A stretch of DNA of 64,000 bases from an uncultured Gemmatimonadales bacterium (GCA_963846545.1 CAWJWG010000003.1:622192-686191); one strand, 5' to 3'; shown: positions 45,832-63,185, counted from the first letter of the stretch. Numbers and translations are program-made. The notes: a model not told the origin generated them from the sequence alone.

Positions 45832-48399
45832 TTATGAACCGCTCCCGACCAGGTCCCGGAACTGGGCGTTCCCCTCCAGGGGTCGGAACCACCAGGTGGG
45901 GTCCGCGGCCAGGGAGGCGCGTTTCTCCGTGTTCGCGACGAGGTACTCCTTGAGCGACGCGACCGCCTCGGCGGTGTCGCCCAGCAGCGTATGCACGAAC
46001 GCGCCGGCGTACACCAGGTCCCGCGTGGGGTCGATCTCGTTATTGCCCTTGGAGCGAAGCACGAGCCGTCGCGCGCTGTCCGGAAGGTTGGCCCGCGCCA
46101 GCGTCGCGGCGACCATCATCCGGCCGTTGAGCGTCTGGAACACCCGATCCTGATCCGGCGCGATCCTGGCTATGGAGTCCGCAAGCCGCCAGGCCAGCGC
46201 GACGTCAGGCGTACGCGCTCGCGTGGTCAGAAGGTACAACTGGCACTCGATGAACTTCACGTCGGCCGGGAACCGACGCTGCCCGACTTCGCACCAGTGG
46301 TCGGCATCGGTGAACTGTCCCAAGTCGTAGGATGCGAAGAAGAGTCGGGCGAGCACAACATCGGCATTGCTGAGGTAGGCGTCTTCCTCGTATGCTCGCT
46401 GCGCCGCCAGCTTCACGTCCACCAGATTGCCCGTCTGGTACTTGAGGTGGGAGAGCGTCGCCCAGGCGCCGGCCTGGGACGGCGAGATCCGCACGGCCGT
46501 TTCCAGGTCCGCCTGCGCCGACGCCAGAAGTGCCTTGGCATCCGACGGGTCGGGCGTGAGGCTCAGCAGCCACCGCCAGTACTTGAGGTTGCCCCGCAGC
46601 TCGAGGGCGTCCGGGTCCGAGGGCGTCAGGGCGAGCGCGCGGTTGACGTGACCCATACCGATGCCGATCCACTTGCCGGCCGCCACCTGGTCGTTCGGAT
46701 CCAGGCGGGAGTGCCGGTACGCCGCTGCCGCCCTCGCGATCAACGGCTCCGGCCAGGCGGGATCCATCGTCTCCGCCGCCGCGAGCAGCGAATCGGCCGC
46801 GGCGAACTCGCGCTCCACGCCCGCCGTGTCCCCTCGCGCCGCGGCCCCCTCCGCCGCTTCACTCCGCCGCTGAGCCTGCTGTACAGCGGTCCAGGCCCGC
46901 ACGTCGCTGGTCCGACGGCGCTGCTGCCGCAGCTGGATCTCCTGCCCCAGCTGGCTTCGGATCTGGCGCGCCACTTCCTGGATCAGGGTGTCCTGGACGG
47001 CGAGGAGGTCGCCCGCCGGCAGCTCCCTGGTAGTGCGCGTCAGGTCCACGCCGCTCTGCCCGTCCACCAGCCGCACCGTGATGCGAAGCTGGCCGCCGAC
47101 CCGCTCCACGCTGCCCGTCACCAGCGCCCCCGCCTGGAGCGCGCGCGCGATGCTGTCGCGGCTGACGCTCGTGCCTCGGTAGGGCGCCACGCCGCCGGTG
47201 GAGACGACGTCCAGCGTCTGCACCTGGGAAAGCTCGCTGATCAATCCCTCGGTCAGGCCGTTCGCCAGGTAACCCAGTGAGTCACTGCCCCCTGCGTCCT
47301 CGAAGTACAGCACGGCGATCCGGTGGTCATTGAGCCCACCACCCGGGCGTCCGGCCGCCGTGCCGCCGCGGCCCCACAGGAGCCAGCCGGCCGCCGCCGC
47401 GCTCAGGAGAACGACGGCGCCCGCCGCGGACCAGAGCTTGGCGCCGGAGAGCCCGAGCACCGTCCGCTCCCCCGCGCCCGACACGCGCAAATTCCGCGTG
47501 CCGCGCGGTGTGGTCCGCCGGGCCGCCGGCACCCCGCGCGACGTGGTCCGCCGCACCGCGACCACCGACTCGAGGTCCGCCAGGACGTCGGCGAAGTCCG
47601 ACATCTTCTGAAAGCGGTCGGCTGGCGTCTTCTCCAGCGACTGCAGAACCGCATCCTCGACCTCGTCGGGGATCGACGGCCGCACCACCATCACGCTCGG
47701 CACCTGCTCCATCGTGTGCCGAGCCAGGATCGCCCGGGCGTTGGGCCCGTCGAAGGGCGGCTGGCCCACGAGCAGCTCGTAGAGCACGCACCCGAGGCTG
47801 TAGATGTCGCTCCGGCCGTCAGCCCCGTCGGCCCCCATGGCCTGTTCCGGACTCATGTAGTGCGGCGTCCCCACCGCCATGCCGGTCTGCGTCAGCTTCT
47901 CGCCCGCCGCATCCACCGCCCGGGCGATGCCGAAGTCGGCCACCAGCGCGTGGCCGTTCTGCAGCAGGATGTTCTCGGGCTTGATGTCGCGGTGGACCAC
48001 GCCCTGCCCGTGGGCGTAGGCGAGCCCCTCGGCGGCCTCGCGAATGATCCGGATGGCGTCGGGAATGGGAAGCTGCTGCTCGCGGTCGAGCCGGTGCCTG
48101 AGGGATTCGCCTTCGATGAACGGCATCACGTAATAGAGGATGCCGTTGATCTCCCCCGAGTCGTACAGGCCGAGGATGTTGGGGTGCTGGAGCGTGGCGG
48201 CCAGCCTGATCTCCCGGAGGAACCGATCGGCGCCGATGGACACGGCGAGCTCGGCCCTCAGGGTCTTGATGGCCACCTTGCGGCCATGGCGCAGGTCTTT
48301 CGCGAGATAGACCGTGGCCATGCCGCCTTCGCCGGCCAGACGCTCGACTTCGTACTTATCGCCGAGCGCGGCGCGAAGCTGCTCCAGTACGTCTGCCAA
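45832..48399 (-). CDS. Ser/Thr protein kinase with TM segment and large periplasmic helical-repeat (TPR-like) domain
   Basis: ORF of 855 aa with Hanks motifs GEGGMATVY, VAIK, HRDIKPENILL, DFGIA and SPEQ, followed by a TM (LWSAAGAVVLLSAAAAGWLLW) and a long repeat domain. Confidence 0.9.
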   Translation of the reverse strand: MADVLEQLRAALGDKYEVERLAGEGGMATVYLAKDLRHGRKVAIKTLRAELAVSIGADRFLREIRLAATLQHPNILGLYDSGEINGILYYVMPFIEGESLRHRLDREQQLPIPDAIRIIREAAEGLAYAHGQGVVHRDIKPENILLQNGHALVADFGIARAVDAAGEKLTQTGMAVGTPHYMSPEQAMGADGADGRSDIYSLGCVLYELLVGQPPFDGPNARAILARHTMEQVPSVMVVRPSIPDEVEDAVLQSLEKTPADRFQKMSDFADVLADLESVVAVRRTTSRGVPAARRTTPRGTRNLRVSGAGERTVLGLSGAKLWSAAGAVVLLSAAAAGWLLWGRGGTAAGRPGGGLNDHRIAVLYFEDAGGSDSLGYLANGLTEGLISELSQVQTLDVVSTGGVAPYRGTSVSRDSIARALQAGALVTGSVERVGGQLRITVRLVDGQSGVDLTRTTRELPAGDLLAVQDTLIQEVARQIRSQLGQEIQLRQQRRRTSDVRAWTAVQQAQRRSEAAEGAAARGDTAGVEREFAAADSLLAAAETMDPAWPEPLIARAAAAYRHSRLDPNDQVAAGKWIGIGMGHVNRALALTPSDPDALELRGNLKYWRWLLSLTPDPSDAKALLASAQADLETAVRISPSQAGAWATLSHLKYQTGNLVDVKLAAQRAYEEDAYLSNADVVLARLFFASYDLGQFTDADHWCEVGQRRFPADVKFIECQLYLLTTRARTPDVALAWRLADSIARIAPDQDRVFQTLNGRMMVAATLARANLPDSARRLVLRSKGNNEIDPTRDLVYAGAFVHTLLGDTAEAVASLKEYLVANTEKRASLAADPTWWFRPLEGNAQFRDLVGSGS

Positions 48400-48460
48400 T
48401 CACTGCCTCGGCGGGGGAGGAGGGTCCAGAACCTTGAAGATAAGCGGAAGGAAGCCTGCG

Positions 48461-49324
48461 CTAGACCCGTGCCCCGGTGAGGGATTCACGCATCGCCGCG
48501 GCGGTTTGCCAGCGCTCCTCGGGCGGCTTGGCCAGGGCCCGGGCGATGCCCTCGGCCAGCTCCCGTGGGGTGTCGGGCCGCAGGGTGCGGAGATCGGGCG
48601 CGGGCTGGGTGAGGTGGAGCTGGAGGACGACCGCCTCGTTCCGGTGGGTGAACGGCGGCTGCCCCGCCAGGCACTCGAAGAGGACGCAGCCGAGCGAGTA
48701 GATGTCGCTTCTGTGGTCGATCTCCTTGAGTGCGGTGATCTGCTCGGGGCTCATGTAGGTGGACGTGCCGACGGCGATGCCTGACCGGGTGAGCCGATCG
48801 CTGCCCGAGGCCGCGACCGCGCGGGCGATCCCGAAGTCCAGCAGGACCGCACCCTCGGGGGCGACTACCACGTTCTCCGGCTTCACGTCGCGGTGGACGA
48901 TGCCGTGCCCGTGGGCGTGGTCCAGCGCGTCGAGCAGGTTGTCGGCCAGGCGGAGCGCCTCGCCGATCGGCATCCGGCTCACCCGGCCCAGGTGCTCGCG
49001 AAGGGTGGGACCCTCCACGTACGTCATGACGTAGTAGACGATCCAGTCGCGCTCGCCGGAGTCGAGCAGATGGGCGATGAGGGGATGTTCGAGCTGGGAG
49101 CAGAGCCGGATTTCCCGGAGGAAGCGGTCGGCGGCGACGCTGACCAGCAGCTCCGGATGCAGGACCTTCAGGGCGACTTGGCGGCCGTCGGCATCGCGGG
49201 CGAGATAGATGCGGGCGTTCCCGCCCTTCCCGATCTCGCGCTCGACTCGGTACTGGCCCTCGAATGCGCGCTGCACCAGCGCCAGCATGTCCCGCGGAAT
49301 GGCCCGGTCCCCGTGATGGATCAT
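48461..49324 (-). CDS. Ser/Thr protein kinase, kinase domain only
   Basis: ORF of 287 aa with GKGGNARIY, VALK, HRDVKPENVVV, DFGIA and SPEQ. It has no sensor or TM region. It lies 52 nt downstream of the M50-HlyD gene. Confidence 0.9.
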   Translation of the reverse strand: MIHHGDRAIPRDMLALVQRAFEGQYRVEREIGKGGNARIYLARDADGRQVALKVLHPELLVSVAADRFLREIRLCSQLEHPLIAHLLDSGERDWIVYYVMTYVEGPTLREHLGRVSRMPIGEALRLADNLLDALDHAHGHGIVHRDVKPENVVVAPEGAVLLDFGIARAVAASGSDRLTRSGIAVGTSTYMSPEQITALKEIDHRSDIYSLGCVLFECLAGQPPFTHRNEAVVLQLHLTQPAPDLRTLRPDTPRELAEGIARALAKPPEERWQTAAAMRESLTGARV

Positions 49325-49376: not shown

Positions 49377-51431
49377 TCAGAACAGCACGTCGGTTCGGAT
49401 TCGGCTCCGGAGGGCCCACCAGAGGGAGCCCCAGATGTTGCTCTGCCGCAGCGTGATACGGGCCTCGCCGGTCATTCCGGGACGCAGGGTTTCGGCCGGA
49501 AGCCGGATGCGAGACTCCACGACGCCATCGGGTGAGGCCGATGCGGCCACACTGCCCACGGCCGCCTCGGCACGGACCCGCGGGTCTGCGCGCGCGATCA
49601 GACGAGCGGGTTGGCCCTGGCGGACCAGGGAGGCACCGGCCCGGTCCAAGGCGACGCGAGCCTCGATCCCGTTCCCCCTCACCCGGAGCAGCGTATCCCC
49701 GATCGAGACCGTCTTTCCGACCAGGGTGTCGGGGCGGGGAGATGTGACGATCCCCGATTCCGGGGCTCGGATCACCAGCGACCGTATCCGGTTCTCCATC
49801 CCGGCTAGACGGGCGGCCTCGGCGCCCCCCTGAGCCGTGATGCGAGCGACGTCTCCTTCCTGGCCCATCGCACGGGCCTGTGCGGCGCGCAGGTCGAGCG
49901 AGTCCACGGCGAGCGACGTCGCCGCCGCGGCGCGCTCGAGCTCGAGGTTTCGGATCAATGCCAACGGGGCGCCCGCACCGACCCGGCTCCCCTCCCTGAC
50001 CAGCACCTCGACCACCACGCCGCTGTCGGGGGCCACCAGGATCCCGCTGACGGTCGGGGAGACCACGAAAGGTCCCACCACCGTGATGGGCCAGGGGAGC
50101 AACCCCGCCACGGCGAGGCCCAGTGCGCCGGCGCCGAGCCCGGATTGGACCCGCCGCATCCGCCCGCTGGCCGACCATCTTGCCCGGGTCTCCCGCCACG
50201 CATCCGCCAGGGTCTGACGGAGACTTCGACGGATCGAGCGGGTCGTGAGCCAGACGAGCACCACGAGTGCGGCGACGCCGACCGCCCCGAAGACACGCGA
50301 CAGCCAGCCGTACGCGATCGCCCCGGCGACGAAGAACACCATCCCGGTGTATGCGGTGGCGAGGATGCCGTACAGCAGGAAGATCCGCTGCTCCCGCTCG
50401 TCGGCCGGCGGCATCGGCAGGTCCTGGCCGAGCCAGCGACTTCGAATGGTCCAGGCGAGATGGGCGAACGCTCGCTGGCGCAGGTTCGGCACCTCCAGCC
50501 AGTCGCTCAACGCGTAGTACCCGTCCAATGGGATCAGTGGGTTCAGGTTCACCAGGACGGCGGCGAGCCCCCCGACCAGGAAGAACGCCAGACCGACATC
50601 GGAGAGAAACGTGCCGGGCGCGGCGATCCACCAGACGATCGCCGCGATACTCGCCACGACCATCTCGATCCACGACCCCGCCGCGGTGACCCACAGGCGC
50701 GCCTTTCGCTCGGGGAAGGTCCAGGCGTCGTTCACGTTGCAGAAGAAGGCAAGCTCGAAGTAGAAGATCATCGCTCCGATCTCGTGCACCTTCCCGCCGA
50801 AGTACTTGCAGGTGTACCCGTGCGCCATCTCGTGCACCGCGACGATCACCATCGTCACCGCCCAGAGGAGCACGTAGTCCCGCAGCGAGGCGCGCAGCAG
50901 GTAGACGTCGCCCATCTCCTTCACGAACTCCGACCACTTGAGCGCCAGGATCGCGAAATACACCGCGAACAGGGCGACGGAGGTCATCAGGAAGCCGCGG
51001 CTGAAGAAGACCTTCAGGTAGGGAAGGGTCCGGTCCATGAATCGGTCGGGGTCGCCGACCGACCAGCGCAAGCGGAGGAGATCGCCCTGAAACGGGCCGG
51101 TGCGCAGCCGCTTTCGTCGCTGTGCCCGCAGCCGCTCCATCAGCACCACGGTGCTCTCCCGCAGCGTCCGCTCGCAAAGGCCCATCGTCTTGAGCTTCTC
51201 GGCGAACCGCGCGACCGTCGCGGCGGTGACCTTGATCCCCTGCTCGGCGAGCGATGCGGCCGCCTCGCCGGGGCTACGCAGGCCATCCAGCGATTGCATT
51301 ACCGCGACCTCGAGCGGACGGAAGCGAAAATACTTTCGGGTGGACGGATCCTTGACGATGAAGCTCTGCTCGCCCCGGTACGTCTGCTCCACCAGGACCA
51401 GGTCGGTGCGCAGACGGGGCTGTTCCGTCAT
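49377..51431 (-). CDS. Fusion protein: PqqD/RRE-like N-terminal domain + M50 (site-2-protease) membrane metalloprotease + C-terminal HlyD-type adaptor domain
   Basis: ORF of 684 aa. Its ATG overlaps the upstream stop (ATGA). It has HEMAH at codons 200-204 (nt 50820-50834) and NLNPLIPLDGY (the NxxPxxxLDG motif), with multiple TM segments. The C-terminal 230 aa form a lipoyl-like, short coiled-coil and barrel arrangement ending NIWGSLWWALRSRIRTDVLF. Confidence 0.85.
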   Translation of the reverse strand: MTEQPRLRTDLVLVEQTYRGEQSFIVKDPSTRKYFRFRPLEVAVMQSLDGLRSPGEAAASLAEQGIKVTAATVARFAEKLKTMGLCERTLRESTVVLMERLRAQRRKRLRTGPFQGDLLRLRWSVGDPDRFMDRTLPYLKVFFSRGFLMTSVALFAVYFAILALKWSEFVKEMGDVYLLRASLRDYVLLWAVTMVIVAVHEMAHGYTCKYFGGKVHEIGAMIFYFELAFFCNVNDAWTFPERKARLWVTAAGSWIEMVVASIAAIVWWIAAPGTFLSDVGLAFFLVGGLAAVLVNLNPLIPLDGYYALSDWLEVPNLRQRAFAHLAWTIRSRWLGQDLPMPPADEREQRIFLLYGILATAYTGMVFFVAGAIAYGWLSRVFGAVGVAALVVLVWLTTRSIRRSLRQTLADAWRETRARWSASGRMRRVQSGLGAGALGLAVAGLLPWPITVVGPFVVSPTVSGILVAPDSGVVVEVLVREGSRVGAGAPLALIRNLELERAAAATSLAVDSLDLRAAQARAMGQEGDVARITAQGGAEAARLAGMENRIRSLVIRAPESGIVTSPRPDTLVGKTVSIGDTLLRVRGNGIEARVALDRAGASLVRQGQPARLIARADPRVRAEAAVGSVAASASPDGVVESRIRLPAETLRPGMTGEARITLRQSNIWGSLWWALRSRIRTDVLF

Positions 51432-52411
51432 GGACCGTTCCGGACCACCTTCTCGCCACGGGCCAGGCCACTCACCACCTCGATTCGTTCGCCCGGCAGC
51501 TCCCCGCCGACCGTCACCTGCCGAAGCGACGTGCGGTCGGCGTCCCAGACCAGTGCGTACCCCTCCTCGATGGCCTCCCGTGGCACCGCGACCACTCGAC
51601 GCATCTCCGAGCCCATCTTCAGGGTGACGCTGCTTCCCGGCGGCAGTCGGTCCCCGTCGACCAGCTGAAGGACGACTTCCCGAGTACCGCTGGCAGGATC
51701 GATCACCGGACTGGCGCGAACCACCCGGGCCCGGGCGCGCTCGCCCCGCGGTCCCAGCACCACCGCTTCGGCACCCAGCTTTACCCCGAACGCGGAAGTC
51801 TCCGGCAGCCGGACCGAGGCGAGCACCGGACTCAAGGCCGTGAGGTGGAAGAGCGAGTCGCCATCCGAAACGAGTCGGCCGATCCGGGCGCTGCGTCCGG
51901 TCACGATGCCGCCGAAGGGGGCCACGATACGGGTGAGGTCGTAGTCGCGCTGCGCCTTCTGCAGTGCCAGCGTCGCCGAGCGCAGATCGAGCTCCACCCG
52001 CTCCGAGTCGGCCTGGGTCACCACCCCCGCGGACTTGAGTGCCCGCTGCCGCTCGGCCTGGACTTCGGCGTCCGCATGCCGGTCACGCGCCTGGGCCAGG
52101 GCGATGGACTGATCCGCGCTCTCCAGCCGGGCGAGCAGCTGCCCGGCCGAGACCCTGCTCCCGAGATCCGCCCCGATGGACTCCACGATCCCCGGCGACC
52201 GAGCGTAGATCGCCGCATCGTGCTCGACGTAGAGCTGGGCTGGCAGCGACAGCGGAACGTCGACGGTAACGGTGTCCGCCGTGACCAGGGCGGTGGCCGG
52301 CGTGCCCGTTGTGACCGCCGCAGTCTCCACCGATCCCTCGCTCTCGCGAACCGACGGCTTGTCGCACGCCGCTACGGCCATCCCGAGGAAGGTGACGGCG
52401 CACAATCTCAT
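51428..52411 (-). CDS. Efflux-type periplasmic adaptor (HlyD/MFP) lipoprotein
   Basis: 327 aa from ATG 52409-52411 (ATGA overlap with the GAF-HlyD stop). It has lipobox MRLCAVTFLGMAVAAC and canonical MFP lipoyl, hairpin and barrel order. Confidence 0.85.
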   Translation of the reverse strand: MRLCAVTFLGMAVAACDKPSVRESEGSVETAAVTTGTPATALVTADTVTVDVPLSLPAQLYVEHDAAIYARSPGIVESIGADLGSRVSAGQLLARLESADQSIALAQARDRHADAEVQAERQRALKSAGVVTQADSERVELDLRSATLALQKAQRDYDLTRIVAPFGGIVTGRSARIGRLVSDGDSLFHLTALSPVLASVRLPETSAFGVKLGAEAVVLGPRGERARARVVRASPVIDPASGTREVVLQLVDGDRLPPGSSVTLKMGSEMRRVVAVPREAIEEGYALVWDADRTSLRQVTVGGELPGERIEVVSGLARGEKVVRNGP

Positions 52412-54348
52412 GACCAGATCCTCCACCACATCAGCCGGGCCCAGCGGGTCGGTCCCCGCAGCGCCCGGGTTACGGTAGACGCGGCATCGGTGAGGACCCG
52501 CGCGTGGGCGGCCATGTCCGGCTTGAGGAGGCCGTCGGGGTTGGCGATGGCGGCCCGGACCGGATAGCGAACCTGGCCGTCCTGTACCGACGGGAGCTCC
52601 CCGATCGAGATCACCCGCCCGTCGAACGTCCGGGAAGGAAGGGCATCCACCCGCAGGCGCACTTCCTGGCCCGATCGGACCCGCAGGATGTCCTCCTGCG
52701 CCACGCCGAACTCGAGCTCGAGGGTATCGGTCCGGCCCAGCACCAGCAGCTGGTCGCCCTCGGCGAGGGAGGTGCCGGTTCGCTCCTCCATTCGGGGAGT
52801 CAGCACCATGCCGGCCGCCGGCGCACGAACGGTGGTCAGCCCCAGCTCCTCGTCCAGCAGGGCCAGCGCGCGTCGCAACGCCTCGCCCCGGATCCGGTGC
52901 AGCCTCTCCTCGGCGGCGTCGCCCCGGCTGGCCGCGAGGGAGGCGAGCCGGTCGGCTGTCGCCGCGTCTCCCGCGGTGGCCTCCCGCTCGGCGGCGAGCG
53001 ACGTGGCTCGCAGCACGGCGAGCAGATCGCCTCGCTGGACCCGGCCTCCCTCCCGGACCGCGACGCGTTCGATGGTGCCGTCCACCAGCACCCGTACCGG
53101 TGTGAGAGCGTTGGGACGCAGCACAGGCTGATCTCCCGAGACCCGAAGCGGCCAGCGGATCAGTGTGATCGCCGCCAGGAGGAGCAGCGCCACCCCGGCG
53201 ATGGTCTGGATCCGGCGGCGGGGCAGGGCGAACAACGCCTGCCGGCGCGCGGCCAGGGCGCCAAGCGCGTCGACCAACGGCACCTGGTGATAGAGCTGCG
53301 CGTTGCGCAGCGCCACGCCGGTCTGGTTGGCCAGGATCGCCGCCACCTCGCGCTGAGTCTCGTTCGCGAATTCCGGGGTCGCGGACTCGAAGAGCAGCAC
53401 ACCGAGGATGCCCTCCTCATCCTTCAGCGGCAGGTAGAGCGCGCTCCGTACCTGATCGTTGGCCAGGTCCTGGCCGAAGATGGTGACGAACAGGCGCTCG
53501 GCGTCCGATGAGGGATCCTCGCGCTCGGACAGGTAGAGCGGCTCGCCTCGTCCCGCGGCCCACTCCGCCCGAGCGATCAGGTCGCGCAAACGCGGGTCAT
53601 CCGGGTTCACCTTCTCCTGCCCGGCGACGGCGCGGATCTCGCACTTGCCCTTGTCGTAGAGACCGACGGCACCGCGATCGAAGTTCAGCGCTCTCGACGC
53701 CAGGTTGACCACCGACTGGAGGACCCGGTCGATGTCGAGGGTGGCGCCGATCTCGCGGCTGATCTCCAGTAGAACCGCCAGGTCGCGGGCCCGGCTTTCG
53801 GCCCCGTGCAGCTGGGCATTTCGCAGCGAGCTGGCCGCGGCCGCCGCCAGACCCTCCAGCAGCTCGCGGTCGCGTGCGTCGAAGGCGCCGCTGCCGGTGC
53901 GCTTGTCCACCACCTGGATGGCGCCGACCGTCACCCCGCCGGCCACCATCGCCGTCGCCATGACGGTGGTGGCGATCGTATCCTCGTTGGCGTCGGTGGC
54001 CTCGCGGTACCGAGGGTCGCTCGCGGCCTCCATGACCATGGTGGTCCGCTGCTTCTGCGCCACGTCGCCGACGAATCCGGTGCCGATCGGCATCTCGGCG
54101 CCCACCAGCCGGGCGCCGGCTCCGCCGACCGCGAGCCGGCAGTGCAGCATGTCGCCCTCGGCGATCCACAGCGAGCCTCCGGCCGCGCCCACGGCCGTCA
54201 GCACCCGGTCGAACACCCGGGGCAGCAGCTGGTCGAAATCGAGGGTGGCGTTGAACTCGAGGGTGATCGAGTGCAGGAGTCGGAGCCGCTCGACCTCGAG
54301 GCGCAGTTCCTCCAGCGAGGCTGGCGGCACGCTAAGGACGTCGGGCAT
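52408..54348 (-). CDS. Tandem GAF - TM - HlyD-type adaptor fusion protein
   Basis: ORF of 646 aa with two cytoplasmic GAF modules (..GSLWIAEGDMLHC..GFVGDVA..; ..RGAVGLYDKGKCEIRAV..ALYLPLKDEEGILGVLLFES..). These are followed by a single TM (IQTIAGVALLLLAAITLI) and a periplasmic HlyD domain ending RWARLMWWRIWS. Confidence 0.85.
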   Translation of the reverse strand: MPDVLSVPPASLEELRLEVERLRLLHSITLEFNATLDFDQLLPRVFDRVLTAVGAAGGSLWIAEGDMLHCRLAVGGAGARLVGAEMPIGTGFVGDVAQKQRTTMVMEAASDPRYREATDANEDTIATTVMATAMVAGGVTVGAIQVVDKRTGSGAFDARDRELLEGLAAAAASSLRNAQLHGAESRARDLAVLLEISREIGATLDIDRVLQSVVNLASRALNFDRGAVGLYDKGKCEIRAVAGQEKVNPDDPRLRDLIARAEWAAGRGEPLYLSEREDPSSDAERLFVTIFGQDLANDQVRSALYLPLKDEEGILGVLLFESATPEFANETQREVAAILANQTGVALRNAQLYHQVPLVDALGALAARRQALFALPRRRIQTIAGVALLLLAAITLIRWPLRVSGDQPVLRPNALTPVRVLVDGTIERVAVREGGRVQRGDLLAVLRATSLAAEREATAGDAATADRLASLAASRGDAAEERLHRIRGEALRRALALLDEELGLTTVRAPAAGMVLTPRMEERTGTSLAEGDQLLVLGRTDTLELEFGVAQEDILRVRSGQEVRLRVDALPSRTFDGRVISIGELPSVQDGQVRYPVRAAIANPDGLLKPDMAAHARVLTDAASTVTRALRGPTRWARLMWWRIWS

Positions 54349-54434
54349 GCGCAGAGTATGCGCCCCGGGCGGCTGTTACGAAAGAGGCATGCCCGATGTG
54401 GTCGAGGTGGGGCCGGCTGTGCTGAAAAGCCGAA

Positions 54435-54465
54435 GCGCCGGCCCCGTTGTCATCGGGGCCGGCGC
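54435..54465 (-). terminator. Strong GC hairpin between the peptide gene and the GAF-HlyD gene (terminator/attenuator candidate)
   Basis: GCGCCGGCCCCG-ttgtcat-CGGGGCCGGCGC is a perfect 12-bp stem. On the minus-strand transcript it is followed by UUCGGCUUUUCAG. It lies 21 nt after the peptide stop and 87 nt before the next ATG. Confidence 0.5.
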
Positions 54466-54485
54466 CTCGGGTCGCTCGGGAGGGA

Positions 54486-54641
54486 CTACTTCTTGAAGCC
54501 CTTGGCCCGCGGGGCGATCCTCTCCTCCAGCTCTTCGACGGTAAGCTCGACCGCCTCGGCATCCTTCCCGGTCTCGTTCCGAACTTGCGCCTTCTGCTCG
54601 GGAGTCAACTCGATGCGGAACTGGCCCTTGGAGCTGTCCAT
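54486..54641 (-). CDS. Small 51-aa peptide (candidate precursor/substrate of the adjacent M50-HlyD machinery)
   Basis: ATG 54639-54641 is preceded by GGAGGG at 4-nt spacing. The product is MDSSKGQFRIELTPEQKAQVRNETGKDAEAVELTVEELEERIAPRAKGFKK. The track ORF (71 aa) begins further upstream without an RBS. Confidence 0.6.
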   Translation of the reverse strand: MDSSKGQFRIELTPEQKAQVRNETGKDAEAVELTVEELEERIAPRAKGFKK

Positions 54642-54713
54642 GGTACCCTCCGAAAGTGTTTTTGCGAGCCCACCAGTATTGGCGAAAGAACTAGGAAGCA
54701 ATGTCGGGAGGTG

Positions 54714-54754
54714 CCGTGAATCTTCCGTGAATCCCTATTGCCCTTCCGTGAATC
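54714..54754. promoter_or_regulatory. Three phased direct repeats CCGTGAATC in the divergent peptide/SARP promoter region
   Basis: CCGTGAATC occurs at 54714, 54725 and 54746 (spacing 11 and 21 nt). Copies 2 and 3 are extended to TTCCGTGAATC. The repeats lie 73-113 nt upstream of the peptide ATG and 39-79 nt upstream of the SARP-like GTG. Confidence 0.4.
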
Positions 54755-54792
54755 GACGGTAGTTTGGGCGTGTTACCCCCCAGGACAATTGC

Positions 54793-57054
54793 GTGCCCGG
54801 TACCGTGCTGACCTTGATCGGATCTCCCGCCGTCGCACGCGCCGACGGAGAGCCTGTCTCGCCGCCGCCCGGCGCCAAGGCGCTCGCCCTCCTCGCCTAC
54901 CTCACGCTAGAGCCCCGCCCCCACACCCGCGAAGCGCTGGCCGATCTGCTCTGGGGAGAGTCGCCCGAGGTCGAGGCGCGGGCCTCTCTCCGCCAGGCCC
55001 TCAAGCAGCTCCGCGACTCGCTCGCCACCATGGTCCACTGCGACCGGAAGCTGGTGCGGCTCGACGAGCCGGTGAGGTGCGACGTGACGGAATTCCTCCG
55101 CCAGGCGGAGACCGATCCCGAAGCTGCCGCGAGCGTGGACATCCCCCGGTTTCTCGCCGGCTTTTCCATTCGTCACGCGCCCCAGTTCGACGACTGGGTG
55201 GCCGAGACCAGGACGTCGCTGCTGCAGCGTTACGCGGCCGTGCTCGGCACCCTGGCGCGAGACGCGATGGACCGGCGGCGCTGGCGGGACGCGGCAGAGC
55301 GGGCCGACCGCTGGCTGGCCAGCGACCGCCTCTCGGATGAAGCGGCACGGGTCGCCATCGAGGCCAGGTACCTCGCCGGCGACCGGGGTGCAGCGCTCGC
55401 CCGGCTGGCGGAGTATCGGAGCGCCCTGCTTCAAGCGACCGGCTGCGAGCCATCCCACGATCTGATCGCGCTCGGACGCCGGATCGAAGCCGAGGCGGGC
55501 CAGGCGCGCGCCGCGCCCGACAGCGACGAATGGTACGCCCGGGCTCCCTCGTTCGACGCCAGCCTGATCGGACGGAGCGACGAGTGGAACACGCTGACGG
55601 CGGTGTGGAAGTCGGCGGCCAAGGGCGCGCGCCGGATCCTGCTGATCGAAGGGGAGGCCGGGGTCGGGAAGTCGCGGCTGGTGGAGGAGTTCCTGCGCAC
55701 GGTCGTGGCCGGCGGGGCCACGGTGTTACGGGGGCGCGGCTACGATGCTACCGCGGCGGTGCCGTTCGCTCCGGTGGTGGAGGCGCTCCGCGCTGCATTA
55801 GACGCGCCGGGCCTCGCCGGCACCGATCCGGAGTGGCTGACCGAAGTGGCGAGGCTGCTGCCCGAGCTGCGGCAGCGCTTCCCTGGTCTGGCCGAGCCCG
55901 AGCCCACGGCCGATCCGACCGACGCCTGGCGGCTCTTCGAGGCTGTAGCCCAGGTGATCGGCTCGCTCGCCGCCGAGCGGCCGCTGGTGATCTCGGTGGA
56001 CGATCTCCAGTGGTGCGACGAGGACAGCTGCAAGCTGATCCAGTTCCTCGCGCGGCGGCTCGACCGCGCGCCGATTCTCTGGCTGGGCACGACCACCCTG
56101 GGCGAGCTGGAGCGCGACGCACCGGCCGCCCGCCTCTGCCGGACTCTCCGTGCCCGGGCCGGAGCGGAGACGATCGCGCTGTCCGGGCTCTGCGAAGAAG
56201 ACGTCTGGCGGCTGGTGCGGGAGCTGGGCCACGTGAGCACGCCGACCGGTGCCCGTCGCTTCGCCAGCCGGATCTCCCGCATCACCAGTGGGAACCCGTT
56301 CTACATCTTCGAGCTCATCAAGACGATGTTCGCCCAGGGGCTGCTGGCGGCGGACGAGCGGACCGGCGAATGGACGGCGTCGCCGTCGGCGCTCGAGGCG
56401 GGCAAGGAGTTCCCGGTCTCCCGTACGGTGCACGACGTCATCGCCGAACGGGTCGACCGGCTCCCTGAGGAGCTGGGGGAGGTCCTCATCACCGTCGCGG
56501 TGGCCGGCGGTCCCGGTTGCCGACCGGAGGCGCTCTCACACGTGCATGGCATCTCCCGGCTCCATGCGGCGGCTGTGTGCGACGCGCTGGCGGAGCGCCG
56601 CCTGCTGGTGGAGGGCGCCGGCGTCTATCGCTGCCTCCATCCGGTCGTCGCCCATGTGGTGCGCGACGGGCTCACGCGGACTCGGCGGCGCGAGGTCCAC
56701 CGTGCGCTGGCCGCGTCCCTGGAAGCGGTCACGCCGGAGGCCCACACGCGGAGCGTCGCGGGCGAAATGGCGCGCCATGCGGAGCAGGGAGGCGACCGGC
56801 GCTTGGCCTACCGTTCGGCACTGCTTGCCAGCGAGGGGGCGCTGGAGCGCTTCGCCTTCTCCGAAGCGCTCTCCTGGCTCGATCTCGCCTCGGCGGTGGC
56901 GGACGACCGCAGCGAGGCCGGCGAAGTGGATCGCCGGACCGCGTCGCTGCTGGAGACAGCGGGCTGGAGCGAAGTGCCGGCAGGAGGTGCCGGACGGGCT
57001 CCCGTCACCCGCGAGATTGTGGGAGAGGACCTGGACCTGCCCGTGCGGGGGTGA
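54793..57054 (+). CDS. SARP-type regulator: OmpR-like wHTH + BTAD + AAA/STAND ATPase + helical C-terminal domain (AfsR-like)
   Basis: ORF of 753 aa. The N-terminus (KALALLAYLTLEPRPHTREALADLLWGE..ARASLRQALKQLR) and ..RYLAGDRGAALARLAEYRSALLQATGCEPSHDL.. form the DNA-binding/BTAD pattern. It has Walker A LIEGEAGVGKSRL and Walker B LVISVDDLQWCD. Confidence 0.85.
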   Translation: MPGTVLTLIGSPAVARADGEPVSPPPGAKALALLAYLTLEPRPHTREALADLLWGESPEVEARASLRQALKQLRDSLATMVHCDRKLVRLDEPVRCDVTEFLRQAETDPEAAASVDIPRFLAGFSIRHAPQFDDWVAETRTSLLQRYAAVLGTLARDAMDRRRWRDAAERADRWLASDRLSDEAARVAIEARYLAGDRGAALARLAEYRSALLQATGCEPSHDLIALGRRIEAEAGQARAAPDSDEWYARAPSFDASLIGRSDEWNTLTAVWKSAAKGARRILLIEGEAGVGKSRLVEEFLRTVVAGGATVLRGRGYDATAAVPFAPVVEALRAALDAPGLAGTDPEWLTEVARLLPELRQRFPGLAEPEPTADPTDAWRLFEAVAQVIGSLAAERPLVISVDDLQWCDEDSCKLIQFLARRLDRAPILWLGTTTLGELERDAPAARLCRTLRARAGAETIALSGLCEEDVWRLVRELGHVSTPTGARRFASRISRITSGNPFYIFELIKTMFAQGLLAADERTGEWTASPSALEAGKEFPVSRTVHDVIAERVDRLPEELGEVLITVAVAGGPGCRPEALSHVHGISRLHAAAVCDALAERRLLVEGAGVYRCLHPVVAHVVRDGLTRTRRREVHRALAASLEAVTPEAHTRSVAGEMARHAEQGGDRRLAYRSALLASEGALERFAFSEALSWLDLASAVADDRSEAGEVDRRTASLLETAGWSEVPAGGAGRAPVTREIVGEDLDLPVRG

Positions 57055-61521: not shown

Positions 61522-62562
61522 TCAGATCTTCGCGTGCCGAAGGAGCAGGTAGGTGATCGCCGCGATGGCGGCGCTCATCGGAATGGTCAGGACCCACGCC
61601 CACACGATCCGCCCCGCCACTCCCCACCGCACCGCCGAAACCCGCTGCGCCGATCCGACGCCGACGATGGCCCCGGTGATGGTGTGGGTCGTGCTCACCG
61701 GCACGCCCAGGCTGGTCGCGAGCAACACCGTGATCCCACCCGCCGTCTCCGCGCAGAACCCACCGAACGGCCGAAGCTTGGTGATGCGCGAGCCCATCGT
61801 CTTCACGATCCGCCAGCCGCCCATCGCGGTGCCCAGGGCGATCGCGATGTGCGCGGCCAGGACGATCCAGAGCGGCACGTGATCAGCCGTCGGCAGGTAG
61901 AGGTAGCCCAGCCACCCGGTGGCGTTCGCGAAATCCGCCTGGCTGGCCACCAGCAGGCTCACGATGATCCCCATCGTCTTCTGCGCGTCGTTTGCCCCGT
62001 GCGACAGGGAGTAGAGTCCGGCGGAGAGGAGCTGGAGTCGTCGGAACACCCGGTCGAGCGGGCCGGGCCGCGCGTTCCGGAGCGGCCAGGAGAGGCCGAC
62101 CGTGAGCAGGAGTGCGATGGCCATGCCGAGCAGCGGCGAGAGGATGATGAAGAGCAGCGGCAGGGTCCAGCCACCGGGGATCAGTGCCCCGAAGCCGGCC
62201 TTGGCGATAGCGGCGCCGGCATAGCCCCCGAGCAGCGCATGCGACGAGGAGCTGGGCAGCCCGGCGTACCAGGTGATCAGGTCCCACACGATCGCCCCGA
62301 TCAGGCCGCCGAGGATCACGCTGGGATCCACCACGGCGATGTCGATCAGCCCCTTGCCGATCGTCTTGGCCACCGCCGTCCCCACGACGAACGCGGCGAT
62401 GAAGTTGAAGAACGCGGCCCAGAACACGGCGACGCCGGGAGTCAGCACCCGGGTGGAGACCACCGTGGCAATCGAGTTCGCGCTGTCGTGAAATCCGTTG
62501 ATGAAGTCGAAGATGAGCGCGATCAGCACGATCACCACGACATAGGCGACTGCGCCGTCCAT
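61522..62562 (-). CDS. Inorganic phosphate transporter, PiT family
   Basis: 346 aa from ATG 62560-62562. It has duplicated PiT signatures (FDFINGFHDSANSIAT and LSHGANDAQKTMG). The upstream part of the track ORF is spurious. Confidence 0.9.
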   Translation of the reverse strand: MDGAVAYVVVIVLIALIFDFINGFHDSANSIATVVSTRVLTPGVAVFWAAFFNFIAAFVVGTAVAKTIGKGLIDIAVVDPSVILGGLIGAIVWDLITWYAGLPSSSSHALLGGYAGAAIAKAGFGALIPGGWTLPLLFIILSPLLGMAIALLLTVGLSWPLRNARPGPLDRVFRRLQLLSAGLYSLSHGANDAQKTMGIIVSLLVASQADFANATGWLGYLYLPTADHVPLWIVLAAHIAIALGTAMGGWRIVKTMGSRITKLRPFGGFCAETAGGITVLLATSLGVPVSTTHTITGAIVGVGSAQRVSAVRWGVAGRIVWAWVLTIPMSAAIAAITYLLLRHAKI

Positions 62563-62564
62563 GC

Positions 62565-63185
62565 TCACCCGTGCTTGATGGAGATGGACTCCAACACGTT
62601 CGAGGCGTCCTCGATCTCGTCGAGCGTCGTCTCGAGGTTGTCGTAGATCTCTTTCCACTTGATCACGGTGAGCGGGTCCGGCTCGCCCTCGAACAGCCGG
62701 CCGAGCCACTCGTGATAGAGGGAGTCGCCCTCTTCCTCCAGCCGCTTCACCTGGACGCACGCCTCCAGCACCGTTCCGCCCTTGTTCTTCTCCAGGGCGC
62801 GCACGGCGACCTGGAGCTGGACCACTGCCCGGCCGATGACGTCGGCGATCAGGACGGCGCCTTCCGGCGCCTTGCCCGCGCGGAACATCTGCAGCCGACG
62901 GGCGGTCCCGTCGATCAGATCGATGACGTCGTCGAGGCGCGAGGCCAGGAGGTGGATGTCTTCCCGGTCCAGCGGGGTGATGAAAACCCGGTCGAGTCGG
63001 GTCACCACCTCGTGAGTGACCTGGTCGGCCTGGTGCTCCAACCGCTTGATCTGATCCACGATAGCCGTCCGGCGTGCGGCGTCCGCGCGCAGCAGCTCCT
63101 GCAGCAGCGTGGCCGACTCGACCGTGAAGGCGGCCACGGCGCTGAACAGGTCGAAGAACTTCTCGTCGCGAGGGAGAAGCCGCAT
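62565..63185 (-). CDS. DUF47 / PhoU-like phosphate transport regulator (YkaA-type)
   Basis: ORF of 206 aa, MRLLPRDEKFFDLF.., helical. It sits immediately upstream of the PiT gene (2-nt gap), the conserved DUF47-PiT pair. Confidence 0.85.
   Translation of the reverse strand: MRLLPRDEKFFDLFSAVAAFTVESATLLQELLRADAARRTAIVDQIKRLEHQADQVTHEVVTRLDRVFITPLDREDIHLLASRLDDVIDLIDGTARRLQMFRAGKAPEGAVLIADVIGRAVVQLQVAVRALEKNKGGTVLEACVQVKRLEEEGDSLYHEWLGRLFEGEPDPLTVIKWKEIYDNLETTLDEIEDASNVLESISIKHG

Follow-up and report, generated by a model that had tools for sequence, protein, structure and literature searches.

The 64-kb window, by which we mean the whole stretch of DNA analysed from an uncultured Gemmatimonadales bacterium, contains a 151-bp intergenic region that separates a gene for a 51-aa precursor-like peptide on the – strand from a divergent gene for a SARP-STAND regulator on the + strand, a layout that agrees with the earlier note on this DNA. 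Three copies of the 9-mer CCGTGAATC, here called R1, R2, and R3, lie between the two genes. The features of the locus, from the regulator gene towards the genes downstream of the peptide gene, are the following.

54793..57054, + strand: regulator of 753 aa, GTG start, the proposed binding protein
54782-54785, + strand: AGGA, Shine-Dalgarno sequence of the regulator gene, whose GTG start is at 54793
54760..54765, + strand: TAGTTT, –10-like element of the regulator promoter; T1, A2, T5, and T6 invariant in 30/30 loci
54746..54754: repeat R3, CCGTGAATC on the + strand, 21 bp from R2
54738..54743, + strand: TTGCCC, –35-like element of the regulator promoter; TTGCC invariant in 30/30 genome loci
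54725..54733: repeat R2, CCGTGAATC on the + strand, 11 bp from R1
54714..54722: repeat R1, an exact copy, CCGTGAATC on the + strand and GATTCACGG on the peptide strand
54700..54705, – strand: GACATT, –10-like hexamer of the peptide promoter, with a predicted start near 54693 on the – strand
54651-54646, – strand: GGAGGG, Shine-Dalgarno sequence of the peptide gene
54486..54641, – strand: precursor-like peptide gene, 51 aa, MDSSKGQFRIELTPEQKAQVRNETGKDAEAVELTVEELEERIAPRAKGFKK, the proposed regulated target
54430..54470, – strand: 17-bp GC-rich hairpin with CUUUU after it, separating the peptide gene from the genes downstream
54348..52408, – strand: GAF-GAF-HlyD protein (Pfam/NCBIfam)
52429..51428, – strand: HlyD-type adaptor (Pfam/NCBIfam)
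51431..49377, – strand: HExxH intramembrane protease fused to HlyD (Pfam/NCBIfam)
49324..48461, – strand: Ser/Thr protein kinase, 287 aa (Pkinase)
48399..45832, – strand: Ser/Thr protein kinase, 855 aa, with a TPR-like tail (Pkinase)

The peptide ORF is conserved and is present as two or three tandem copies in many genomes. Its 167 homologues share an invariant ...RIAP followed by hypervariable tails, and searches of Pfam and NCBIfam assigned the peptide to no family. The hairpin that follows it is highly stable (ΔG –42.3 kcal/mol, z = –5.0, 0/200 shuffles folding as well); it was left uncalled by a simple terminator scan, and is a candidate terminator or attenuator. Synteny of the GAF-HlyD, HlyD, and protease-HlyD genes is kept in all genome loci. 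The best NCBIfam match of the protease is a daptide-type protease, below cut-off, and an exact-sequence look-up of the GAF-HlyD protein gave no match. The two kinases directly downstream (Pkinase E values of 2e-45 and 5e-52) are syntenic in most loci, with 55–93% identity for the 287-aa enzyme (STK287). The conserved gene order runs regulator, divergent peptide(s), GAF-HlyD, HlyD, protease-HlyD, kinase, and kinase; the two kinases are a possible input to the regulator, and no response-regulator gene is found in this conserved module.

The 9-mer CCGTGAATC occurs exactly three times in the window, always on the + strand and at offsets of 11 and 21 nt, which reproduces the count and the positions (54714, 54725, and 54746) given in the earlier note. 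The longer word said to be shared by two copies was also recovered, as TTCCGTGAATC in copies 2 and 3; copy 1 is preceded by TG. A scan of the window for any k-mer with three copies inside 60 nt returned the CCGTGAATC triple as its sole 9-mer cluster, and one-mismatch variants elsewhere in the window are scattered singletons at chance level (15 found vs. 17.7 expected), so that the claim of nothing comparable elsewhere in the window holds. Markov-2 random sequences of the same composition gave 0.07 such clusters per window, with at least one in 6% of the replicates; this estimate is conservative because CCGTGAATC is AT-rich and the genome is 70% GC.

Scanning a genome collection with the GAF-HlyD protein yielded 34 loci, all but one of them (33/34) from Gemmatimonadales/Gemmatimonadota MAGs; the nearest homologues of the regulator are likewise from Gemmatimonadales. 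The window together with 29 orthologous intergenic regions made up an alignment set of 30 genome loci, and 80 metagenome contigs picked by peptide sequence alone formed a second, independent sample. In the 29 genome loci and the 80 contigs, CGTGAA, which reads TTCACG on the peptide strand, is kept as the core of the repeats and the spacers are left free. The regulators of the 29 orthologous loci are only 44–81% identical to that of the window, and the conservation of the repeat upstream of homologous loci is thereby confirmed. In the 30 genome loci, the information content is ~2 bits at core positions and 0–0.7 bits in the spacers.

A single-anchor alignment with a fixed spacing of 11 + 21 misaligned many loci, a difficulty solved by a two-module alignment in which the R2–R3 distance was allowed to vary. 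Module A, on the peptide strand, is TTCACG(R2)-N5-TTCACG(R1)-N9-NANNTT, and module B, on the regulator strand, is TTGCC-N4-CGTGAA(R3)-N7-TA(G/C)(G/C)TT. At 29/30 genome loci R1 and R2 stand 11 bp apart, and 115 unique promoters carry the pair at that distance; the R2–R3 spacing across the 30 genome loci is 21 bp in 9 (the window included), 22 bp in 17 (including locus L026, wrongly anchored at 24 by the script), and 23 bp in 4. The helical phasing that had been proposed for the whole array thus stands for R1 and R2, whereas the R2–R3 distance drifts over 21–23 bp, about two turns, and is not rigid. The R1 core is kept at its G, T, A, and A positions in 30/30 genome loci and is conserved in 110–115 of the 115 unique promoters, the R2 core is conserved in 99–115 of the 115, and R3 reads CGTGAA in 29/30 genome loci, always as TTGCC-N4-CGTGAA-N7-TAnnTT. 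A fourth repeat 11 bp upstream of R3 was considered and rejected, that position being occupied by the invariant TTGCC and no repeat. As judged from the alignments, the three copies are two modules, with R1 and R2 assigned to the putative peptide promoter and R3 to the putative regulator promoter, and no uniform array.

Setting GACATT (54705..54700, – strand) as –12..–7 places the predicted peptide start near 54693. The hexamer follows the R1 core at a fixed N9; among the 115 unique promoters it has A2 in 109, T5 in 99, and T6 in 115, and among the 30 genome loci T6 in 30/30 and A2 in 28/30. This base bias is, at the level of sequence, the signature of a –10 element, TANNNT-like. In the predicted numbering, the R1 core TTCACG falls at –27..–22 and the R2 core TTCACG at –38..–33, the position of a –35, making R1 the promoter-proximal half and R2 the upstream half of a SARP-type box composed of the 11-bp units GATTCACGGCA at –29..–19 and GATTCACGGAA at –40..–30. 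In the predicted geometry the –10 is 8 bp from the 9-mer repeat and 20 bp from the upstream core. Apart from the repeat, the peptide promoters contain nothing that resembles a –35. The placement at the –35 that the earlier note gives for SARP sites in general is matched by R1/R2, which take the –35 place, with the 3′ repeat 8 bp from the conserved –10-like hexamer. A generic E. coli-type promoter/terminator scan of 54300-54900 returned no site. Because E. coli thresholds reject both TAGTTT and GACATT, conservation was used for the –10 and –35 calls, and we infer these assignments from it alone.

On the regulator strand, the pattern TTGCC-N15-17-TANNTT occurs once in the window vs. 0.04 expected. 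The element TTGCCC-16 nt-TAGTTT ends 27 nt upstream of the regulator GTG, with AGGA between, and can be read as the sigma-70-like promoter of the regulator gene, with a predicted start near 54772; the predicted regulator and peptide starts are 79 bp apart. The R3 core lies inside the 16-nt spacer of this promoter-like element, at predicted –25..–20 and in inverted orientation, and its register to the –35 and –10 is fixed (N4, N7) while its distance to R2 drifts over 21–23 bp. Such a placement in the spacer of the putative promoter fits the autoregulation suggested earlier, and R3 probably functions as an operator for autoregulation, as a site for a third protomer, or as both. An ECF-sigma-type reading of R3, with GAATC as –35, was also tried and dropped, nothing being conserved at the matching –10 distance.

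Variant promoters bear on the role of R3. In the duplicated peptide promoters L002, L005, and L033, which have no regulator gene, TTGCC and TAGGTT are lost and R3 is kept at 21 bp, so that R3 may also serve the peptide promoter. Most other second-copy peptide promoters carry R1 and R2 only, because coding sequence lies upstream of them. One metagenomic clade combines a degenerate R3 (TTCCCG and similar) with R2 as ATCACG and a strong peptide –10, TAGGTT; its regulator promoter and recognition helix are unchanged. The drift between R2 and R3, together with the decay of R3 in this clade, indicates that R3 is not obligatory in the activating array. It is an accessory site, and no part of the model is less certain than the sign of its action.

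The specificity of the R2/R1 pair was assessed in a 611-kb set (window segment plus 114 loci) and a 437-kb set (whole window plus 34 genome loci). Searching the former for TTCACG-N5-TTCACG with at most one mismatch gave 152 pairs, 146 of them in peptide-gene orientation and ~145 at peptide promoters; the pairs found elsewhere lie in a conserved stretch of protease-gene coding sequence and at two singletons. Searching the latter for CGTGAA-N5-CGTGAA under the same tolerance (at most one mismatch) found the pair almost solely upstream of peptide genes and in constant orientation to them, compared with 0–3 pairs in composition-matched shuffles of the set. In the metagenome contigs, the pair is present at 92 of 128 peptide genes with enough upstream DNA; the peptide genes that have no pair are nearly all downstream members of tandem arrays sharing the promoter of the first gene. 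Second peptide genes of tandem arrays with their own R2/R1 pair also occur. Wherever the upstream sequence is long enough, a divergent SARP homologue is encoded: in 54/54 metagenome loci (those in which more than 700 nt precede the first peptide gene) and in all such genome loci (~29/29). A test for covariation between repeat and recognition helix gave no signal; because both are essentially invariant, the pairing of site and protein rests on linkage rather than on correlated change. The window also contains a PhoU-like/Pit phosphate-transport pair at 61.5–63.2 kb, which is without such a site.

The regulator consists of a SARP domain (wHTH + BTAD, residues 1–236), a STAND P-loop NTPase (~254–625), and a short helical C-terminus. 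BTAD (Pfam PF03704) scored 26.1 bits vs. a cut-off of 22.1, Trans_reg_C fell below its cut-off (20.3 vs. 26.2 bits), and AAA_16 matched with E = 2.4e-30, with a Walker A (GEAGVGKSR) and a Walker B (hhhhDD) motif present. A single-sequence PDB search with the regulator gave no match, and a profile of 36 homologues matched AfsR (8hvr_I, E = 5.5e-7, in the wHTH and BTAD segments) and EmbR (2fez, E = 2.8e-5), aligning residues 12–79 with the AfsR wHTH and 149–231 with the AfsR BTA domain. In an AlphaFold2 model of residues 1–256 (pLDDT 89.8), strands and helices succeed one another as in an OmpR-type winged helix, and a helical BTAD comes next. Foldseek places AfsR (8k60, 8hvr) and EmbR in the first six ranks of the PDB matches to this model, over ~250–260 columns, with E values of 6e-11 to 5e-8 and TM ~0.65; generic TPR proteins come after them, weaker by four to five orders of magnitude. 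By profile and predicted fold, then, the N-terminus is a genuine SARP domain, and the earlier designation of the protein as a SARP-type regulator with a STAND ATPase behind is sustained.

Modelled at full length, the protein also shows a P-loop NTPase together with a helical domain and a winged helix, and the Foldseek matches are a STAND-TPR protein (6mfv), Apaf-1, and the plant NLR ZAR1; about five helices (629–722) follow the winged-helix part. The last 323 residues gave no Pfam match at all, to a TPR or otherwise, at E values up to 10, and with a short helical tail and no TPR the regulator is not filed as an AfsR orthologue. A Response_reg search of the protein found no receiver (REC) domain, the wHTH being at the extreme N-terminus. 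The recognition helix EARASLRQALKQLR is nearly invariant, and R63-A64-S65-L66-R67-Q68 and R74 are invariant in the family. W74, R87, and R94 of AfsR contact DNA, and T88 and R92 read bases (PMC10936776). In the profile alignment the first three correspond to W54, R67, and R74 of the regulator, and the base-reading pair is replaced by Q68 and Q72, so that recognition details from AfsR are not simply transferable.

The arrangement at the peptide promoter has a close counterpart in Streptomyces coelicolor. Neighbouring direct repeats in SARP targets are set at 11 or 22 bp from each other, the 3′ one being 8 bp away from the –10; the afs box bound by AfsR spans 22 bp as two 11-bp repeats at –40..–19, centred at –29.5, in a promoter with a poor –35 (TTCAGC at –38..–33) and a suboptimal –10 (CACTGT) (PMC10936776). 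The afsS –35/–10 spacer, at 20 bp, is unusually long (PMC11301090). The box described here, numbered by its predicted –10, likewise has two 11-bp repeats at –40..–19 over the –35, a TTCA core that is in register with that of afsS and read in the same direction (TTCAGC in afsS, TTCACG here), 20 bp from core to a weak –10, and 8 bp from the 3′ repeat to the –10. This geometry is identical to that of afsS, and the peptide promoters would therefore have the anatomy of SARP-dependent promoters. The first T of the R1 and R2 cores (A54720 and A54731 on the + strand) corresponds to T–27 and T–38, both critical for AfsR. Both targets are small ORFs, the afsS product having 63 aa and the peptide 51 aa. 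AfsR (8hvr, 8k60) has the same order of SARP domain and STAND/NOD ATPase, and Ser/Thr kinase genes lie nearby in each case (AfsK there, two kinases here). The two systems differ in phylum (Actinomycetota vs. Gemmatimonadales, with SARP-domain identity of ~24%), in protein length and tail (993 aa with TPR vs. 753 aa without detectable TPR), in the base-reading residues (T88 and R92 vs. Q68 and Q72), and in scope, AfsR being global whereas the present regulator is locus-specific and has a third repeat in its own divergent promoter.

Other relatives share parts of this design. EmbR of Mycobacterium tuberculosis (2fez), whose regulation is linked to Ser/Thr kinases, has the SARP-domain fold over ~250 residues and differs in carrying a C-terminal FHA domain where the present protein has a STAND ATPase. 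The small SARPs (ActII-ORF4, DnrI, RedD, FdmR1, and VlmI) are, like this regulator, pathway-specific activators encoded beside the target operon; they differ in having a SARP domain only, other repeat words (e.g. TCGAG-type), and antibiotic clusters in actinomycetes as their setting. Their sites are heptameric direct repeats 4 nt (11-bp period) or ~15 nt (22-bp period) apart, often three in number; as here, they overlap the –35 and leave 8 bp between the 3′ repeat and the –10 (PMC10972967; PMC10936776). Triple heptamers occur at some SARP sites, where the spacers range from 4 to 15 nt (PMC10972967). The wider OmpR/PhoB family, for example Streptomyces PhoP, shares the winged helix, head-to-tail 11-bp units, a TTCAC-like core, and –35 overlap, whereas the regulator described here has no receiver, has BTAD and a STAND ATPase, and has its sites at one locus.

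We consider it probable that R1–R3 are sites for the divergent SARP-STAND regulator, with R2/R1 activating the peptide promoter and R3 feeding back on the regulator itself. The OmpR-type winged-helix domain would recognize all three repeats. R2 and R1 would form a 22-bp SARP box of two 11-bp units, GATTCACGGnn on the peptide strand, at about –40 to –19, standing in for the missing –35 and stopping 8 bp short of the weak –10 GACATT. As in the case of AfsR at afsS, a side-by-side dimer of SARP domains on R2/R1 would recruit RNA polymerase (‘sigma adaptation’), activating the peptide gene and, via read-through of the hairpin, the GAF-HlyD, HlyD, and protease-HlyD genes. Protein on R3 would hinder RNA polymerase at the regulator promoter and most likely lower transcription of the regulator gene (negative feedback); R3 may also take a third protomer when the STAND module oligomerizes. 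In this model, regulator binding, both transcription starts, activation by a dimer, hairpin read-through, and negative autoregulation are inferred. The earlier interpretation of the repeats as binding sites that activate the operon is supported on computational grounds.

The feedback through R3 is where a different reading has most room. R3 could be a site of positive autoregulation, or have no effect on the regulator promoter, its sole role being that of a third activator site upstream in the peptide promoter, and this is a possibility of some weight, if clearly a minority one. It would account for the retention of R3 in the L002, L005, and L033 duplicates, which have neither TTGCC, TAGGTT, nor a regulator gene, and there is precedent in DnrI, ActII-ORF4, and other SARPs, whose known sites include triple repeats spaced by 11 and 22 bp (PMC10972967). 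Most second-copy peptide promoters nevertheless make do with R1 and R2, the register of R3 is fixed to the regulator –35/–10 and not to R2, and R3 is inverted relative to a regulator promoter that already has a good –35 and –10.

It seems improbable that the adjacent regulator is instead a repressor of both divergent promoters, with induction by release from DNA. Sites in the –35/spacer region are typical of repressors (PMC11301090), R3 does lie in the spacer of the regulator promoter, and the clade with the strong peptide –10 TAGGTT has weakened R2 and R3. The peptide promoters, however, have no –35 besides the repeat and a mostly weak –10, which is the signature of activator dependence; their geometry is base-pair-identical to that of an experimentally proven SARP activation complex; and characterized SARPs are activators (PMC10972967).

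Similarly improbable is binding of the repeats by another OmpR/PhoB-family winged-helix protein encoded elsewhere, such as a PhoP-like response regulator. The TTCAC core is like that of PHO-box units in Streptomyces and also like the afs box, the sites of AfsR and PhoP overlap in that genus with PhoP competing with AfsR (PMC10936776; PMC10972967), and no covariation ties the site to this regulator. Against this, the pair is confined to peptide promoters in 611 kb, is found only here in the 64-kb window and is absent at the PhoU-like/Pit phosphate-transport pair, the SARP gene is linked to it in all 54 metagenome and all ~29 genome loci, and the conserved module is without a response-regulator gene. 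That the repeats reflect chance, recent local duplication, or a structural/RNA element with no protein-binding role, for which only the general frequency of short repeats in genomes speaks, has a negligible probability given the 0.07 clusters expected per window, the lack of an Rfam match and of any RNA folding signal between the two genes (z 0.09 and 0.81), and the kept cores and free spacers across more than 100 loci, comparative data by which it is effectively refuted.

The proposed activation by the SARP-STAND regulator through R2/R1 follows a known mechanism, the SARP box. New are its occurrence in the phylum Gemmatimonadota, its target (an uncharacterized and very common peptide + HlyD + protease operon), the combination of SARP and NOD with no TPR, and the placing of a third repeat within the promoter of the regulator itself. 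A search of the literature yielded nothing specific on SARPs in Gemmatimonadota or on this type of peptide + HlyD + protease cluster, and the published SARP descriptions compared (e.g. PMC11301090 and PMC10936776) concern actinomycete or Streptomyces regulators only.

A broader and more speculative reading, to which we give a low probability, is that the locus is a self-contained, quorum-sensing-like peptide-signalling circuit, widespread in soil Gemmatimonadales. The membrane HExxH protease/HlyD machinery would free the hypervariable short tails from a conserved 44-aa leader, sensing would be the task of the conserved pair of Ser/Thr kinases, of the STAND module in the SARP protein, or of both, each peptide gene would be under positive feedback via its R1/R2 box, and R3, in the regulator’s own promoter, would provide damping. 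If true, the locus would add a new class to the peptide pheromone or bacteriocin systems and would be the first circuit under SARP control from outside Actinomycetota.

The regulatory model offers concrete terms, with exact sites and predicted start sites, for a very common peptide operon of soil bacteria, and an auto-active regulator or promoter swaps are a possible handle to switch that operon on. The SARP promoter rule, in which 11-bp repeats 8 bp from the –10 replace the –35, was established experimentally in actinomycetes. Finding the architecture of the AfsR-afsS complex, whose structure is solved, base-pair-identical in more than 100 loci of an almost uncultured phylum suggests that activation by sigma adaptation is older or wider than its name implies.

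The peptide encoded divergently from the SARP-STAND regulator gene belongs to a large family without annotation, to which no Pfam or NCBIfam model matches. Its gene and the elements that follow it are arranged as below.

54486-54641, minus strand: peptide gene, with homologues in the orthologous loci L002-L114
54430-54470, minus strand: 17-bp GC hairpin followed by CUUUU (dG -42 kcal/mol, z = -5.0)
49377-54348, minus strand: operon with three HlyD-type membrane-fusion modules
45832-49324, minus strand: two genes for Ser/Thr protein kinases, one of 287 aa and one of 855 aa that carries a TPR-like tail

Across these homologues, an almost invariant N-terminal part of 44 aa, ending in EELEERIAP, precedes a hypervariable tail of 2-18 aa, with 143 distinct tails among 167 genes. 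Lys, Gly, Thr, Pro, and Arg are abundant in the tails, and Asp, Glu, and Cys are virtually absent. The peptide looks like a leader/core precursor with a very short “core”. The gene is often present in 2-4 tandem copies per locus. L033, a 1.5-kb contig (DATABX010000351.1), has the repeats and three peptide genes in tandem and is assigned to an Actinomycetota bin, probably through a binning error; every other locus is from Gemmatimonadota. In three loci from MFD-series MAGs (L025, L026, and L031), the regulator reading frame is split into several tblastn pieces, which could reflect frameshifts or assembly indels.

The very stable hairpin lies directly 3′ of the peptide stop codon, ahead of the GAF-HlyD gene, and is likely a terminator or attenuator setting the ratio of peptide to machinery; a simple scan for terminators gave no call here. 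In the operon that follows, the first HlyD-type module is fused to two cytoplasmic GAF domains, the second is plain, and the third is fused to an HExxH intramembrane protease, whose best match is a daptide-type protease, below the cut-off (212 bits vs. 300). The conserved block contains neither an ABC transporter nor a modification enzyme. Both kinase genes are kept immediately downstream in most orthologous loci, and no gene of the module is better conserved than that of the 287-aa kinase (55-93% identity). The arrangement is reminiscent of the AfsK/AfsR and PknH/EmbR pairs.

A rival view takes the repeats for a PHO box, bound by a PhoP-like response regulator. The window contains phosphate genes, identified from ORF translations only:

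61522-63185, minus strand: PhoU-like (DUF47-type) gene and inorganic phosphate transporter (PiT-like) gene

No CGTGAA repeat pair is found upstream of them, which is a small argument against the PHO box.

The regulator-peptide intergenic regions vary among loci. In L019, L020, L022, L023, and L028, two successive R2/R1 pairs (the proposed SARP box), ~80-130 bp apart, lie between the regulator and the first peptide gene; in the gene-proximal pair, the -10-like hexamer is CATCTT or GAGATT. Such loci have either two promoters in tandem or what is left of a peptide gene since lost. In a metagenomic clade (L039, L040, L043, L044, L047, L049, L054, L056, L060, L062, L064, L067, L069, L071, L080, L095, and L107), R2 is ATCACG, R3, the repeat within the regulator promoter-like element, has decayed to sequences such as TTCCCG, TTCGCG, and TTCTAG, and the peptide gene has a strong -10, TAGGTT; the recognition helix of the regulator is unaltered. 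With this altered promoter, the clade may have shifted towards activator-independent expression.
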